Source: an uncultured Clostridia bacterium
Lineage (GTDB): Bacteria; Bacillota; Clostridia; TANB77; CAG-508
Assembly: GCA_946529215.1 (NCBI GenBank)
Contig: CAMMZC010000003.1
Coordinates: 3,976-67,975, forward strand
DNA: 64,000 bases
Direction of reading: 5' to 3'
Part shown: positions 16,500 through 25,579 of the stretch, piece by piece
Position numbering within the stretch: the first letter of the stretch is position 1
Layout: each line of letters opens with the position of its first letter
Made by a program: the position numbers and the translations under genes
The notes under the pieces: generated by a model
Seen by the model: only the letters and a program-made list of their open reading frames with translations
What the model was told of the DNA's origin: nothing
The model's database searches: none

Positions 16500-18575
16500 T
16501 TATTGATTTTTTAATTTTAATATGTTGATTGTTTCCATAGTTTCTTTAGACTTCTCGTTATCTTTGCCATATACTTTGCATTGTAATTTGTATAATTTTT
16601 CGTATAACTCTAGCGAATTATTATATTTTTTCATTTTTTTATAAATACTAGCTAAATTATTTAAATTCCTTAATGTATTTGGATGAGTTTTCCCTAATGT
16701 TTCTTCACTCTTTTTATATGCTTCTTTTCCAAATTTTATAGCATTATCATAATTTTCTATATCACTATAATAAGTTGCAAGATTGTTTAACGATGTTAAT
16801 GTGTTAGGATGAGAGTCTCCCAATATTTCCTTTAATTTATTATAAACTATTTCACCTAATTTTACAGCTTTATTATAATTTCCCGTATGATTATAATAAT
16901 AAGAAAGATTATTTAAGCTTCTAAATGTATCTGGATGCTCATATCCTAATGTCTCTTTTCTATTTTTGTATACCTTTTCTCCTAACCTTATTGCTTCTTT
17001 ATAATCTTTTTTATAATTATAATAAATTGCAAGTCTGTTTAAACTTGTTAATGTATTTGGATGAGTTTTGCCTAATGTTTCTTTTCTTTTTTTATACACA
17101 TCTTTTCCGAGTTTTATTGCCATATCATAATTTCCTATATTACTGTAACTGACAGCTAGATTATTTAAACTAGTTAATGTATCAATATGAGTTTCTCCTA
17201 AACTTTCTTCTCTTTTTCTATATACTTCTTCTCCAAGTTTTATTGCTATATCATACTTTCCAATATCATCATAACCTCTCGCTATATTATTTAAACTATC
17301 TAATGTATATAAATTATTCTCTCCTAATACTTCTTTTTGGATTTTATAGCATTCATTGTTTACTTCCAATGCTTTGTTATAATCACCTGTATTTCTATAA
17401 GCAACAGCCAATTTAGTTAAACTTATCAATGTATTTAAATGTTTTTCTCCTAATTCTTTTTTATCTTTTTCATATACCTTTTTTTGCCACTCTAAAGCTT
17501 TTTTATAATCTAATTTTGTTCCTTTACCTTCTTCATATATATATACAAGCTCTTTCATTGCTTCTTTACATTCAAGATTTCCTGATTGTTCAAGCAGTTT
17601 TATTCCTTTTTCTTTATTTACTTCAACATCAATGCCATTTAAATATGCTAATCCTATAAAGTATAAGTGTTTTGGATCATCATTTTCCCTCCATGCTTCA
17701 TTTATTAAATACTTTTTTAAAGATTCACTTAAAAGCTCTGTATCATTTACTTTAATCGGAACAGGTATTTCTTTATATTTTTTTTGTAATTCTTCTTTAC
17801 TTGTATCTACCGCTTCAATTGGAACTATATTTTTACATTCTTTTTTAGCATTTGGATATTCTATTTTTTCCACATAGTTTTCTTCATTTACTAGATTTGG
17901 CGTTACAACCATTGCAAATAATTTACTTTTCTTCAAAGCTTCCTCTATTGACTCATTAAAATCTTGCCCTGGCTTTAAAAACTCATCATACCAAATTGCA
18001 ATATCTCTGCAAAATTCATTTTCATGAATTAAATGCATTATGTTTTCAGCATGTTTTTTGTCTTTTTTTCTATAACTTAAAAATATATATGCATCAAAAG
18101 CTTCTTGAACCTGTTTTCTCAATTCATCACTTACTAATACTGATTCTATATATTCTTTTAATTTACTTTTATATTTTTCTTCTCCAACAACTAACTTACT
18201 TAATGCTTGAAGGTTTCCACATTTTTCGTTAAAGTAGCTATCTATATTTGGCTCCATCATTATTGGCAAAATTGGAATATGATTATCCATTGCATATTGA
18301 AATTCTACTACTCTTGCATCACATTCTTCTGATATAAATTTCCATGTTACAGGTATCACAAATAAGTTTATTTGGCTCAAGTCATCTATAATTTCTCTTG
18401 AATTAATATTTTTATCAGCTTTATAATAAATTACACAATTTCTTATATCTAGAATTTCTTCAGTTATCTCTTCAAAATATTTATCAAAATCATTTTGATA
18501 GCAACAAAAATATACTCTTGATTTATCTTTTAGTTCTTTTCCTCTTGTTTTATATTTTAACTTTATTTCTTCCAT
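16500..18575 (-). CDS. Tandem TIR-like + TIR domain protein with C-terminal TPR array
   Basis: 691 aa. Residues ~18-110 form a TIR-like flavodoxin module (RVYFCCYQNDF...LFVIPVT...IPILPI). Residues ~160-260 form a canonical TIR (YIFLSYRKKDKKHA...IWYDEFLKPGQDF...KLFAMVVTPNL..NYVEKIEYP). Then come about 7 kinesin-light-chain-type 42-aa TPRs (LGxxHPNTLTSLNNLAxxYxxxGNYDxAIKLG). No P-loop. Confidence 0.8.
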   Translation of the reverse strand: MEEIKLKYKTRGKELKDKSRVYFCCYQNDFDKYFEEITEEILDIRNCVIYYKADKNINSREIIDDLSQINLFVIPVTWKFISEECDARVVEFQYAMDNHIPILPIMMEPNIDSYFNEKCGNLQALSKLVVGEEKYKSKLKEYIESVLVSDELRKQVQEAFDAYIFLSYRKKDKKHAENIMHLIHENEFCRDIAIWYDEFLKPGQDFNESIEEALKKSKLFAMVVTPNLVNEENYVEKIEYPNAKKECKNIVPIEAVDTSKEELQKKYKEIPVPIKVNDTELLSESLKKYLINEAWRENDDPKHLYFIGLAYLNGIDVEVNKEKGIKLLEQSGNLECKEAMKELVYIYEEGKGTKLDYKKALEWQKKVYEKDKKELGEKHLNTLISLTKLAVAYRNTGDYNKALEVNNECYKIQKEVLGENNLYTLDSLNNIARGYDDIGKYDIAIKLGEEVYRKREESLGETHIDTLTSLNNLAVSYSNIGNYDMAIKLGKDVYKKRKETLGKTHPNTLTSLNRLAIYYNYKKDYKEAIRLGEKVYKNRKETLGYEHPDTFRSLNNLSYYYNHTGNYNKAVKLGEIVYNKLKEILGDSHPNTLTSLNNLATYYSDIENYDNAIKFGKEAYKKSEETLGKTHPNTLRNLNNLASIYKKMKKYNNSLELYEKLYKLQCKVYGKDNEKSKETMETINILKLKNQ

Positions 18576-18647
18576 AACAATACTCCTATCATAAAAATTC
18601 TCTACTATTTTGTAAATGGTAAATTATTTAAAAAAATAACAATGTTA

Positions 18648-23383: not shown

Positions 23384-25288
23384 CTATTCTGTAAAATCAT
23401 TTAACATCATTTTTACTATATCGTAATCACTTGATTTTAAATCTTTATTAATTCCCATACTTTGTAATTGATAAGAAACATTATCTAATTCTTCAAAAGG
23501 CACAAGAGCTGGGTGTCTTCTTCCTAAATAATCTCTGTGATCATTTAATATAGGATAATATCTTCTTACATCATCAATATTGGCTTTTATATACCCTATT
23601 GTTCTCATGTAGGCATTCCATCTATCATGTTCATTTTTTGCAAGCATTTCTTTTAATTCTTCTGTATAAATTTCTCTAAACATTTTCAAATTTTCTTTTA
23701 GATTTTTAGAATATTTTTCTCCTAATACAGAATACAATTTATATTTTACATGAAGTGCACTTGCTCTTGATGAACGTTTATTATATTCATTTAAATAATA
23801 ATCTGCAGAACTTCCACGATATGCTTTATGTATTTTTTCTCCAATTTTCTCAATTTCAGAATCAACTATTTTATTATCAAAATACATATCTTTTACACTG
23901 CCAAAAGCATTTATATCATATGTTGTTTCTTTTTCATTAATAAGCTTGTTTACTTGTTCTTTTTTATATTCATTTTGAATCCAAATATTTATTATTGGCT
24001 TTCTCTCATAATTTCTAATAAATAATCTTCTTAAATCTATTGCTGTATCTAAATTTTTACTATCTGTCTCCATTGATACTAATATATAATTTATGTCATT
24101 TACCTGTTCTATAGCCTCTATTGCTTTTGGAGATTTTATATCTGCATTAACAAATGTAATATCATAATTATTTAAAATGTCAGGTGTTTCAATTTCAAAA
24201 TTTTTCTTAATTTCGTCTGCTTTTATATCAATTACTAATGCTTTAAATCTATAACCTATCATCATTCCACACCATAAAGCATCTTTTAAAAATTCTTTTC
24301 CTACTTGTCCACAACCAACAATAAGCAATGATATAACATTATCAATTGCTCCTTCATAAATTGGCTTTTTATCTAATAAATTGAAAATTGCTCTTTCTTT
24401 TTCATTTACAATTTCTACATTAACAAACTCTTTATCAGATAAATCTAATTTTATAAGTTCTTGTTCGATTTTATCTTCAACTTCTGCATCTACAACATCT
24501 TTATCTGATAATCCTAATTTTGTCAGTATTTTTTTTCTTTCTTCTAATTTTATTTTATTAATAATATCTCTATTTGCCGAGTCTAAAACTATTGGCGCTT
24601 CTTCAGTATTGTTTATAACATATACTTTAATCTTTTGGTTTTTGTATTTTTCCATAATTTCTAACGCATCATTAAGATTTTGTTCTTCATTTTCAGAAAT
24701 CATATATATAGTTATATTATTATCATAATTATTTAAATTAATTTCGCTCATTTTTTCGGAAAGCTTTATAGATTTAAAAGAATCTGTTTTACCATTTCTT
24801 TTATATTCTACATTAGTAAATATAACTGCATTATTATTGTTCACATAACCTTCTGCAATCATAACAGATTTCTCATTCATTTCTGAAAAAAAGTATAAAT
24901 TTTTATTTTTTAATCTCTTAATTTTAATACCTTTAAATAAATCGTTTAAAATAGCAATTAAAGTACTTACAGTAAAAAAAGGCAAAGCAATTAAAAAGAT
25001 ATTTATCCAAATAAAATATCCAATTCCAAAAGCACTATGTGTATTAATTTTTGATAAAACATCTATATCTTCGTTTAGTGTTATACTTTTTAATGCATAA
25101 TAAAATGTATTAGTTACTTTGATGGCGATATTACTATAATCTAAAAGTGGAAACACCAAAATTCCCAAACAAATAAGTCCTATTCCCATTATTATAAAAA
25201 ATCTATATTTAGTGTCTATTTTGTAATTTTTTAATAATACAAATCCAATTATTGTTACCACAATACTTAAACTAAAAGTTATTACCAT
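23384..25288 (-). CDS. Membrane protein with RCK/TrkA-N-like Rossmann modules and a C-terminal RyR-like domain
   Basis: 634 aa. About 4 N-terminal TM helices (VITFSLSIVVTIIGFVLL, FFIIMGIGLICLGILVFPLL, FGIGYFIWINIFLIALPFFTVSTLIAIL). A degenerate module is followed by a canonical Rossmann module (ISLLIVGCGQVGKEF ... KALVIDIKADE). The C-terminus NEHDRWNAYMRTIGY ... RRHPALVPFEELD is RyR-like. No K+ selectivity filter. Confidence 0.75.
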   Translation of the reverse strand: MVITFSLSIVVTIIGFVLLKNYKIDTKYRFFIIMGIGLICLGILVFPLLDYSNIAIKVTNTFYYALKSITLNEDIDVLSKINTHSAFGIGYFIWINIFLIALPFFTVSTLIAILNDLFKGIKIKRLKNKNLYFFSEMNEKSVMIAEGYVNNNNAVIFTNVEYKRNGKTDSFKSIKLSEKMSEINLNNYDNNITIYMISENEEQNLNDALEIMEKYKNQKIKVYVINNTEEAPIVLDSANRDIINKIKLEERKKILTKLGLSDKDVVDAEVEDKIEQELIKLDLSDKEFVNVEIVNEKERAIFNLLDKKPIYEGAIDNVISLLIVGCGQVGKEFLKDALWCGMMIGYRFKALVIDIKADEIKKNFEIETPDILNNYDITFVNADIKSPKAIEAIEQVNDINYILVSMETDSKNLDTAIDLRRLFIRNYERKPIINIWIQNEYKKEQVNKLINEKETTYDINAFGSVKDMYFDNKIVDSEIEKIGEKIHKAYRGSSADYYLNEYNKRSSRASALHVKYKLYSVLGEKYSKNLKENLKMFREIYTEELKEMLAKNEHDRWNAYMRTIGYIKANIDDVRRYYPILNDHRDYLGRRHPALVPFEELDNVSYQLQSMGINKDLKSSDYDIVKMMLNDFTE

Positions 25289-25579
25289 TTATAGTTCCTC
25301 CTTAATTATTTTAAATCCAAGTTTTTGTATTAATTTCAATGTTTCAATAGCTGTATTTCTATCATATTCTTTTTCGCTTTCTGGCAAACTTTCATAAGAT
25401 ACTAAACAAGGTGTAGTTTTCAATTTATCATCTCGTACTATTCCATATTTCCAACCTTCATTTATTCTTCCTATAGCCCATACTTCATGTGTATTCTTAG
25501 CTAGTTTCTCCGCTAGTTTTAAAATTTCCTCACTTAAAATAACATCCTTTGTATCTACAGGTTTTGGTTGATAGTTCAT
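25289..25579 (-). CDS. Stand-alone RyR (ryanodine-receptor repeat) domain protein
   Basis: 96 aa. LAEKLAKNTHEVWAIGRINEGWKYGIVRDDKLKTTPCLVSYESLPESEKEYDRNTAIETLKLI matches the RyR-domain consensus as I remember it. GGAGG RBS. Its TAA stop is immediately followed by the ATG of the next gene. Confidence 0.8.
   Translation of the reverse strand: MNYQPKPVDTKDVILSEEILKLAEKLAKNTHEVWAIGRINEGWKYGIVRDDKLKTTPCLVSYESLPESEKEYDRNTAIETLKLIQKLGFKIIKEEL

Follow-up and report, generated by a model that had tools for sequence, protein, structure and literature searches.

A ryanodine receptor-domain protein pair with TIR-type neighbours as a candidate Thoeris-like antiviral module in an uncultured Clostridia bacterium

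A 64,000-nucleotide stretch of contig CAMMZC010000003.1 from an uncultured Clostridia bacterium, hereafter the window, carries a block of five minus-strand genes, A to E, that encode proteins with ryanodine receptor (RyR), Rossmann, DUF4062 and TIR domains. We lean, with modest confidence, towards reading this locus as a TIR-signalling, Thoeris-like antiviral module built around an RyR-domain receptor, the core of which is the conserved gene pair A and B. An earlier note, made from the DNA letters alone, had proposed that a nucleotide derived from NAD by the TIR and DUF4062 proteins is read by the Rossmann/RyR protein; the proposal is now backed by the linkage of TIR-superfamily genes to B across genomes, by the ligands reported for phage RyR proteins and by the retention of the RyR pocket in B. 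The genes, and the gap between C and D, are placed as follows.

25289-25579, minus strand: gene A, 96 amino acids (aa), stand-alone RyR (Repeat12-type) domain protein
23384-25288, minus strand: gene B, 634-aa membrane protein, conserved core and putative signal-gated effector
19544-23341, minus strand: gene C, 1265 aa from its ATG; an alternative GTG at 23356 would give 1270 aa
19233-19543, minus strand: gap with micro-ORFs (open reading frames), non-coding
18648-19232, minus strand: gene D, rhomboid-family protease (Pfam Rhomboid)
16500-18575, minus strand: gene E, 691 aa

The head-to-tail order of the five genes, their junctions and the flanking terminators had been described before and are borne out by the six-frame ORF list and a hairpin scan; the stop codon of A is directly abutted by the ATG of B, and the ATG of C lies 42 nt past the stop of B. 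The further idea of one conserved five-gene operon did not hold up, as the conserved core consists of A and B, the rhomboid gene being found again in a single relative and E-type genes being mostly solitary.

Gene A matches the Pfam RyR family PF02026 with 119.7 bits (cut-off 27.4 bits, E 6e-35). Counted from alignments, it is approximately 57% identical to the RyR-like protein of Bacteroides thetaiotaomicron (3NRT/6UAG) and approximately 47% identical to repeat 1 of RyR1. RyR proteins of phages have been found either to bind 3'cADPR, 2'cADPR and cADPR (cyclic ADP-ribose) at nanomolar to sub-micromolar levels or to cleave cyclic isomers (PMC13232231; 10.64898/2026.06.04.730250). For RyDEP, a dyad of H75 and D117, a stacking W78 and a phosphate-binding H100 are described (PMC13232231), and for RyR Tad, which has a dissociation constant of 43 nM, the residues H129/W132, K147/H154 and K170/D171 (10.64898/2026.06.04.730250). 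Residues H31, W34 and D73 of A correspond to RyDEP H75, W78 and D117, are spaced precisely as these are, and do not vary among 120 homologues. At position 56, Thr is present in 110 of the 120 sequences of the stand-alone bacterial RyR clade to which A belongs. Such stand-alone proteins of approximately 93-97 aa are very common (3,464 hits).

Gene B is made up of three parts.

24917-25288, minus strand: B residues 1-124, helical membrane region, maybe an M1 / pore-helix / loop / M2 pore
23879-24901, minus strand: B residues 130-470, two RCK/TrkA-like lobes in tandem, the first degenerate and the second a canonical Rossmann lobe
23387-23857, minus strand: B residues 478-634, divergent RyR-like module (Pfam, HHalign, conservation)

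The AlphaFold model of B, obtained from a 55-sequence alignment, has a pLDDT (predicted local distance difference test) score of 87 and shows, in order, N-terminal helices (2-21, 26-48, 54-70, 75-80 and 86-124), a small alpha/beta lobe, a canonical Rossmann lobe and a helical C-terminal module. The Rossmann lobe carries the sequence GCGQVG, with G325-x-G327-x-x-G330 and D354. In the C-terminal module, Pfam RyR is matched only weakly over residues 542-614 (E 0.007, 17 bits, under the 27.4-bit cut-off), and HHalign against stand-alone RyR proteins gives a probability of 92% and E 6e-7; judged by these profile comparisons, the module is truly homologous to RyR, if divergent. A conserved EYNKRSSRASALH-x-KYK helix precedes H554, W557, H592 and D621, which are the pocket-residue equivalents with insertions between them, corresponding to RyDEP H75/W78/H100/D117 and RyR Tad H129/W132/H154/D171. 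Pfam, AlphaFold and HHalign hence agree with the first description of A as a stand-alone RyR protein and of B as a membrane protein with Rossmann and RyR-like parts. A profile search of PDB sequences with B returned nothing useful beyond a weak RyR match.

Conservation in B was counted in an alignment of 136 sequences, namely window B and 135 representatives of its family with 16-41% identity to it.

RyR core, kept in n of 136: E553 133; H554 132; R556 134; W557 133
RyR core, kept in n of 136: G565 136; H592 129; D621 108
Helix before the RyR core, kept in n of 136: S506 124; A509 123; H513 131; K517 118
Rossmann lobe, kept in n of 136: G325 134; G327 111; G330 115; D354 113

The strongest conservation across the family falls on the RyR core, and the Rossmann nucleotide motif is kept too. 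The latter motif, GxGxxG with a ribose-binding Asp, is what would be expected if B sensed NAD+ depletion, its RCK site binding NAD+/NADH or ATP/ADP and being emptied by an NADase so that B is activated, with RyR serving assembly only; the report of DUF4062 as a plain NAD hydrolase points the same way. The RyR-pocket residues, however, are kept even more strongly than the Rossmann motif, and they are the ligand contacts in the solved phage complexes, for which mere assembly would have no need. We regard sensing of NAD+ depletion as quite improbable.

B belongs to a large, uncharacterised family. A word-indexed search retrieved 79 full-length homologues of B, and exhaustive searching with HMMER yielded 5,474 representative clusters at E<1e-3, of which 1,569 reach E<1e-30 and are nearly all full length. 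The isolated RyR-like module, in a word-indexed profile search, gave 11 fragments only, no relative of B was detected in 2.9 million viral contigs, and a lookup of the exact B protein yielded no contig on record. The loci compared below (numbered L001 onwards) are 24 genomic loci, from gut and rumen metagenome-assembled genomes (MAGs) labelled as Erysipelotrichaceae, Clostridia, Bacilli and Tenericutes together with one Coriobacteriales MAG, and several metagenome contigs; they were annotated by tBLASTn, ORF clustering and Pfam or local hidden Markov models (HMMs).

A-type RyR genes adjoin B in approximately 14 loci, upstream or downstream of it. In L019, L023-25 and protein P0335, RyR is fused to the C-terminus of B, and in L001, L007, L008 and L021 the gene directly upstream of B encodes an AbiD-family protein that ends in the RyR domain (PADLOC AbiD, E 3e-37). 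Additionally, a separate AbiD gene lies 3' of B in L014, L017, L019, L020 and L022. A and B are a conserved pair and the core of the system; that the two proteins also pair physically is suggested by the natural fusions and by the dimeric nature of RyR domains.

It was found that a same-strand TIR or DUF4062 gene lies at most two genes from B in 18 of the 23 informative non-redundant loci, at distances ranging from an 11-nt overlap to a gap of approximately 200 nt (median approximately 15 nt). These partners represent no fewer than five unrelated TIR architectures.

TIR-NB-ARC-TPR: L008, L023-27
TIR-NPHP3_N-TPR: L027
TIR-WD40: L010, L011
TIR-MORN: L012, L016, L018
CAP12-TIR and prokaryotic STING: L029
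DUF4062 and TPR (C-like, sometimes three genes): window, L001, L008, L017, L020-22

In approximately 0.6 Mb of flanking DNA, TIR and DUF4062 hits stand almost exclusively beside B or RyR genes. A pair of this kind is also present in a cultured organism: on plasmid pNP243 of Butyrivibrio fibrisolvens D1 (L044, NZ_CP146964.1, 87800-92379), the TIR-WD40 protein WP_167562754.1 is followed by the B-like protein WP_073389489.1, which is 22% identical to B, and this pair offers a practical handle for experiments.

Some individual loci deserve mention on their own account. In L029 (8758-11725), a CAP12-type TIR gene with prokaryotic STING, a CBASS effector type, overlaps the start of the B homologue by 11 nt; neither of the two neighbouring genes scanned there is a cyclase, one of them being an opposite-strand nucleotide pyrophosphatase/PglZ-like gene. 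In distant relatives, small genes of approximately 180-240, 340-380 and 111 aa, left unannotated by Pfam and PADLOC, recur 3' of B or C-like genes, as does a 157-aa protein with sigma70 r3/r4 domains (L001 15778-18113; L008 13791-15587; L014 12824-13846; L026 13265-15271; L027 17673-19661). These recurrent genes may be further components or regulators.

The association can be approached from the RyR side as well. Six stand-alone RyR genes were sampled independently of B, chosen solely on the length of their contigs, and all six directly abut the gene of a large protein. One of these proteins is a B homologue, one is a kinase of 1,356 aa that also matches Card1 weakly, and two (873 and 1,011 aa) are Card1-like nucleases; in the last two, of 705 and 789 aa, Pfam matches nothing. 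Five of these six large proteins match an HMM of the B C-terminal module (with E-values between 1e-5 and 1e-12 where the protein is not a B homologue), and three of the five also match the Rossmann lobe of B; the 1,011-aa Card1-like protein of L040 was matched by neither of the two models. TIR_2 or DUF4062-TPR genes were present within 6 kb in four of the six loci, and TIR genes often lie beside such pairs. This sampling indicates a general pair in which a variable killing domain is joined to a Rossmann and RyR-like unit and abuts a canonical RyR gene. The unit thus appears to behave like a portable sensor module, and A and B of the window are, as far as these profile matches tell, the membrane-effector version of the pair. 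The domains, the gene linkage, and the conservation of pocket and catalytic residues are established. Within the window, Pfam detected no P-loop NTPase, including those of the STAND/NB-ARC type, and no nuclease domain in any of the five proteins, so the first impression that a classical effector is absent is correct for the window alone; the relatives contain STAND NTPases, AbiD proteins and Card1-like nucleases.

Amongst the RyR loci, Card1-like or kinase genes, each followed by an abutting RyR gene, occur in L031 (1928-5998), L036 (3379-6000) and L040 (2946-5981), and the L031 kinase and the L036 nuclease match the RyR-like module of B. In protein P0311, the Rossmann and RyR-like unit of B is fused to a Card1-like nuclease domain. 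L039 (1-6282) encodes the 705-aa Rossmann and RyR-like protein with its abutting RyR gene. TIR genes are absent there, and the neighbours are NUDIX, PIN7 and HD-domain genes, of which the NUDIX gene suggests ADP-ribose metabolism. In the RyR locus L034 (1362-12285), several TIR-family genes stand together, encoding a TIR protein of 678 aa, a TIR_2 protein of 431 aa, a fusion of TIR to a methyltransferase and one DUF4062-TPR protein; MATCAP and metallophosphatase genes lie there as well.

The RyR proteins might also serve as brakes, with A, and possibly the B module, sequestering or hydrolysing TIR-made cADPR isomers, either as a guard against leak or as an off-switch, in the manner of the ring nucleases of type III CRISPR. 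A is small and soluble and retains the equivalents of the RyDEP dyad (H31, D73) together with the stacking W34, all invariant in its 120 homologues, and the biochemistry of RyR proteins from prokaryotic viruses has so far revealed only sponges or glycosidases (PMC13232231; 10.64898/2026.06.04.730250). A brake leaves unexplained, however, the fusions of RyR-like modules to membrane, nuclease, HEPN and kinase domains, which are typical of receptors on effectors, and likewise the natural B-RyR fusions. We therefore hold it to be unlikely as an account of the pair, although such a role could hold for A alone, alongside signalling through B.

If B is a receptor of a TIR-made signal, then C and E would be the sources of that signal, and the domains concerned are the following.

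23081-23314, minus strand: DUF4062 module of C, residues 15-92 (GTG numbering), Pfam E 4.5e-6
17805-18086, minus strand: TIR_2 domain of E, residues 164-257, Pfam E 5.9e-12

In C, the DUF4062 module is followed by a second, degenerate module, a helical/TPR region and three beta-sandwich modules; Pfam recognises two of the latter as SpaA and one as CarboxypepD_reg, and matches TPR weakly. The DUF4062 module scores 27.2 bits against a cut-off of 24.7. A T-x-E-E-Y motif is invariant in seven aligned modules, and E95/E96, immediately past residues 15-92, is the candidate catalytic Glu. C had been credited with two DUF4062/TIR-like modules, of which the first is confirmed by Pfam; the second is not significant in the window sequence, but the second modules of C-related loci do match the DUF4062 profile (E 4e-6 to 2e-4). 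C-like genes recur beside B in seven loci. DUF4062 has been described as a TIR-like NADase, acting in the single-gene defence Swarozyc (10.64898/2026.05.01.722283), and C could for that reason act on its own. We take C to be a putative infection sensor and NAD-consuming enzyme.

Gene E encodes, in order, a conserved N-terminal module, TIR_2, a Sel1 repeat and seven TPR_12 repeats (Pfam). The catalytic Glu of its TIR domain, a point singled out for checking at the start, was found as E239 and is invariant in 79 of 79 relatives. The N-terminal module had been read as a further TIR-like domain; it is a conserved domain with a semi-conserved (E/D)-F-x-x-A pattern, and hmmsearch and HHalign give it no significant relation to TIR (E 0.1-0.4), whereas TIR_2 itself is real. 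Amongst the fetched genomic B loci, no E homologue stands beside B. On the RyR side, the TIR proteins encoded 3' of the RyR gene in L031-33 are E orthologues (46% identity in the N-terminal module, 59% in TIR and 45% in the Sel1 part). From their invariant Glu motifs, the enzymes of both C and E look active. E is probably an NADase and sensor able to act alone, and may also feed A and B.

The nature of the membrane domain of B determines what such a signal could switch on. A separate model of residues 1-134 has a pLDDT of 86, and with this membrane model Foldseek gave no significant match, all hits being at E>0.6; most of the top 50 are tetrameric P-loop cation channels. Pfam Ion_trans_2 does not match B. 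RCK (KTN) domains follow the membrane domain, the family consensus after the second long helix reads S-L-L-Y-A-L-Q-x-L-(T/S)-G-(D/N)-Q-D, and a few distant members (P0223, P0231, residues ~55-75) carry the K+-filter-like sequences KSLGLGQD or KTLGFGQS. Two RCK lobes, pore-like hit lists and filter-like motifs in relatives fit a degenerate P-loop channel, and the membrane domain of B may be a degenerate cation-channel pore of this kind. A more specific version, in which B is a cation channel gated by ADP-ribose (ADPR) or a cADPR isomer, with the B repeat and A forming the sensor and the TIR enzymes of the operon switching it on when a phage infects, is put forward only tentatively, and we have more doubt than trust in it.

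Under the Thoeris-like reading, C and E would act as infection sensors whose repeat or beta-sandwich parts recognise a phage component. Their TIR-type domains would then cleave NAD+ to ADP-ribose or a cyclic ADPR isomer, and this product, to judge from homology, would bind the RyR-type pocket in the C-terminal module of B. That module probably forms a pseudo-tandem pair with co-translated A, comparable to Repeat1-2 in animal RyRs and to phage RyR proteins, which are homodimers. The weakest step is the next one, in which ligand binding would be relayed through a tandem RCK assembly resembling a gating ring (as in MthK, GsuK and CASTOR) to the membrane domain. The infected cell would leak ions or depolarise and cease to grow, a form of abortive infection. 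Elsewhere the same Rossmann and RyR-like unit with its abutting RyR would drive AbiD/HEPN, a Card1-like nuclease or a kinase. In this scheme we infer the identity of the ligand, the pairing of A with B, the channel activity and the defence phenotype.

The window copy has a history of its own, which was traced by blastn and tblastn against the nearest relative, L001, whose B is 77% identical. DNA homology between the two extends over 25596-19541 (A to C) and 19238-18648 (rhomboid). In between lies a 125-nt remnant (19464-19341) that is 78% identical to L001 17579-17703. In L001 this stretch spans the last part of c4, a 379-aa gene, and the first part of a sigma70-r3/r4-like gene, two genes that lie 3' of C. 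The micro-ORFs at 19233-19543, at first counted as genes of the operon, are a deletion scar with remnants of these two genes and lie outside the system. Homology with the AbiD-RyR fusion gene of L001 begins 18 nt upstream of the RyR portion; window A is only the RyR part of the fusion seen in the closest relatives and has no Abi_2 part. From the comparison with L001 it follows that the window has lost three genes. A, B, C and E are intact ORFs. A rhomboid homologue near B occurs only in L001, the closest relative; the rhomboid gene was accordingly rejected as a component and is probably a neighbour outside the system.

Several findings speak against the Thoeris-like reading and have to be set beside the evidence above. 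A has T56 where phage and animal RyR proteins carry the phosphate-binding His (RyDEP H100), and the filter position of window B reads KSITLNEDID, with no GYG and no Gly-containing filter. Having lost the AbiD part and three downstream genes, the copy may be reduced or decaying. Swarozyc depletes NAD as a single gene, and its reported product is linear ADPR, not a cyclic signal (10.64898/2026.05.01.722283). Similarly, fusions of TIR to STAND or repeat sensors are usually seen as NAD-depleting effectors and not as makers of signals. B loci of the L003 type, L013, L014 and L028 have no nearby TIR gene. Lastly, in a reverse test on 80 metagenome loci, picked by an alignment-based scan only for similarity to E (a single-sequence metagenome scan with E having found nothing), an RyR or B-type module lies at most 4.5 kb from the E-like gene in only approximately 9-10 of the 80. 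These modules are always on the same strand, usually adjacent and up to approximately 4 kb away, and no other neighbour recurs. E-type proteins are thus mainly solitary, and their link to RyR is facultative, though far above chance. Of the co-occurrence across genomes that had been suggested as a check, the part on A/B with TIR-superfamily genes stood (18 of 23), and that on E with RyR or B was weak (approximately 9-10 of 80).

In a rival account, the genes are independent neighbours brought together only by the clustering of accessory genes: C a self-contained Swarozyc-like NADase, E a self-contained TIR-TPR NADase, and A with B an unrelated NAD- or ATP-sensing RCK ion-transport protein. E-like genes are solitary in approximately 88% of the 80 loci with no recurrent partner, a single DUF4062 gene is enough for defence (10.64898/2026.05.01.722283), neither A nor B is covered by a PADLOC model, and some B genes stand alone among housekeeping genes (L013, L028), one of them directly after a P-type cation ATPase. 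Mere neighbourhood sits poorly, however, with the operon-spaced TIR genes at 18 of 23 B loci, which often overlap in stop and start codons and represent five architectures, with the RyR-AbiD fusion directly upstream of B and with the fusion of the Rossmann/RyR-like sensor unit to Card1-like nucleases. Moreover, the window and most other loci are not classic defence islands, and hitch-hiking on an island explains the pairing of B with TIR genes poorly. Independent neighbours are, on balance, an improbable explanation of the locus; still, the rival accounts keep real weight because E-like and DUF4062 proteins can act alone and some B genes have no TIR neighbour. In L013 (4170-8627), the B homologue without a TIR neighbour starts 10 nt past the P-type cation-transporting ATPase gene. 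This arrangement hints that some members of the B family have a role in ion transport unrelated to TIR.

The block is bounded by terminator-like hairpins.

25910-25940, minus strand: terminator-like hairpin that closes the upstream DUF1189 gene; upstream limit of the block
16403-16432, minus strand: bidirectional terminator-like hairpin, 3' of E and of tRNA-Met; downstream limit
16322-16397, plus strand: tRNA-Met, at the downstream limit of the block

The hairpin scan found three terminator-like structures where 1.4 were expected and none between the two boundary hairpins; in a promoter scan, sites were no more frequent than by chance. The flanking genes are housekeeping (pgi, rpmA, rplU, the DUF1189 gene, an SbcC/SbcD-like pair and NrdD), and the neighbourhood is not a defence island; of the earlier idea of a tRNA-linked accessory island, a slightly lower GC content remains (0.22-0.25 in the block and approximately 0.27 in its surroundings), with no mobility genes at the locus. 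There are no phage genes around A and B, and an anti-defence or prophage origin was rejected on this genomic context of housekeeping flanks. Just upstream, the stretches 27428-30880 and 31048-33544 hold an SbcC-like ATPase and a metallophosphoesterase (an SbcCD/YhaNO-like pair), then tRNA-Thr and NrdD, the gene of the anaerobic ribonucleotide reductase. Neither PADLOC nor NCBIfam names a system for the five proteins, in keeping with the first description of an unnamed conflict-type locus, and by Pfam and PADLOC the window has no CD-NTase cyclase gene.

Should the Thoeris-like reading be right, RyR would join SLOG, Macro, SAVED, CARF and STING among the receptor domains of bacterial immune signals, and a family of over 1,500 protein clusters that is frequent among Firmicutes of gut and rumen would be added to the TIR signalling repertoire, with RCK-type membrane proteins, AbiD, Card1-like nucleases and kinases as added effectors. 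The RyR sponges and glycosidases of phages may then have been captured from host receptors. cADPR has long been linked to the gating of RyR, but it is an old debate whether and where cADPR-type nucleotides act on RyR, one that a small pair of bacterial proteins would open to direct tests. If the channel version were true as well, the path from TIR and cADPR through an RyR domain to ion flux would be an ancient bacterial immune circuit, and the Repeat1-2 site of animal RyRs a candidate site of action for cADPR-type ligands.

Amongst known systems, animal RyR and the ADPR-gated TRPM2 resemble B as proposed here in placing an RyR pocket or an ADPR-binding domain on a cation channel. Their channel cores are unrelated to that of B and their sizes very different, and B has a single divergent RyR repeat with a separate partner protein, unlike animal RyR; an evolutionary link would be speculative. 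GsuK, CASTOR and BK have two RCK lobes per chain, likewise B. The filter of MthK, GsuK, CASTOR/POLLUX and BK reads TVGYGD as against KSITLNEDID in B, which lacks the T-x-G-Y/F-G pattern, and B carries an extra C-terminal RyR-like module unlike these RCK-gated channels. Swarozyc shares with C an N-terminal DUF4062 with a conserved Glu motif and a large auxiliary region that possibly binds a phage protein; C has in addition the second degenerate module, the helical/TPR region and the three SpaA/CarboxypepD-type beta-sandwiches. The NB-ARC or NPHP3_N domains characteristic of Avs/STAND are found in the partner TIR proteins of L008 and L023-27, not in the window. AbiD/AbiF abortive infection proteins (Abi_2, HEPN-type) carry an A-type RyR at the C-terminus in the nearest relatives, whereas window A is without Abi_2.

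RyDEP and RyR Tad have the same Repeat12-type fold as A, with identical spacing of His-x-x-Trp, His/Thr at +25 and Asp at +42. Both are dimeric, phage-encoded inhibitors of defence, while A and B, unlike them, are chromosomal and linked to host TIR genes and killing domains. Host RyR-domain effectors are described in neither of the two phage RyR preprints (PMC13232231; 10.64898/2026.06.04.730250), and in full-text literature searches neither this system nor any connection of TIR genes with host RyR proteins was found described.

Thoeris itself shares with this locus a TIR gene and an effector with a nucleotide-binding receptor domain in one operon. The criterion for Thoeris is a TIR gene with a catalytic Glu beside the effector, and such genes were found here (E239 of E, T-x-E-E-Y of C, 18 of 23 B loci). 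PADLOC gave only weak ThsB hits for the TIR domain of E, and no hit of A or B to a known Thoeris effector (ThsA, ThsC-ThsL), a comparison that does not extend to the sequence of the type X 'ion channel' effector; in a plasmid search with a type X TIR sequence, all inspected hits were type II with a macro-domain effector. A survey of Thoeris types I-XI lists 29 putative effector types (10.64898/2025.12.03.692087), and the terms RyR, TrkA, Rossmann and HEPN do not occur in the accessible text and tables (10.64898/2025.12.03.692087). TIR-STAND proteins were left out of the survey because they were treated as NAD-depleting effectors. The membrane effectors that it gives are Macro-TM in type II, DUF6650-TM in type VI, SLATT in type VII and an 'ion channel' in type X. 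In the window, the receptor would be an RyR (PF02026-type) module combined with RCK, which is absent from the accessible text and tables of the survey, and the TIR partners across these loci are large sensor fusions with TPR, WD40, MORN, STAND or DUF4062 in place of the small ThsB of Thoeris.

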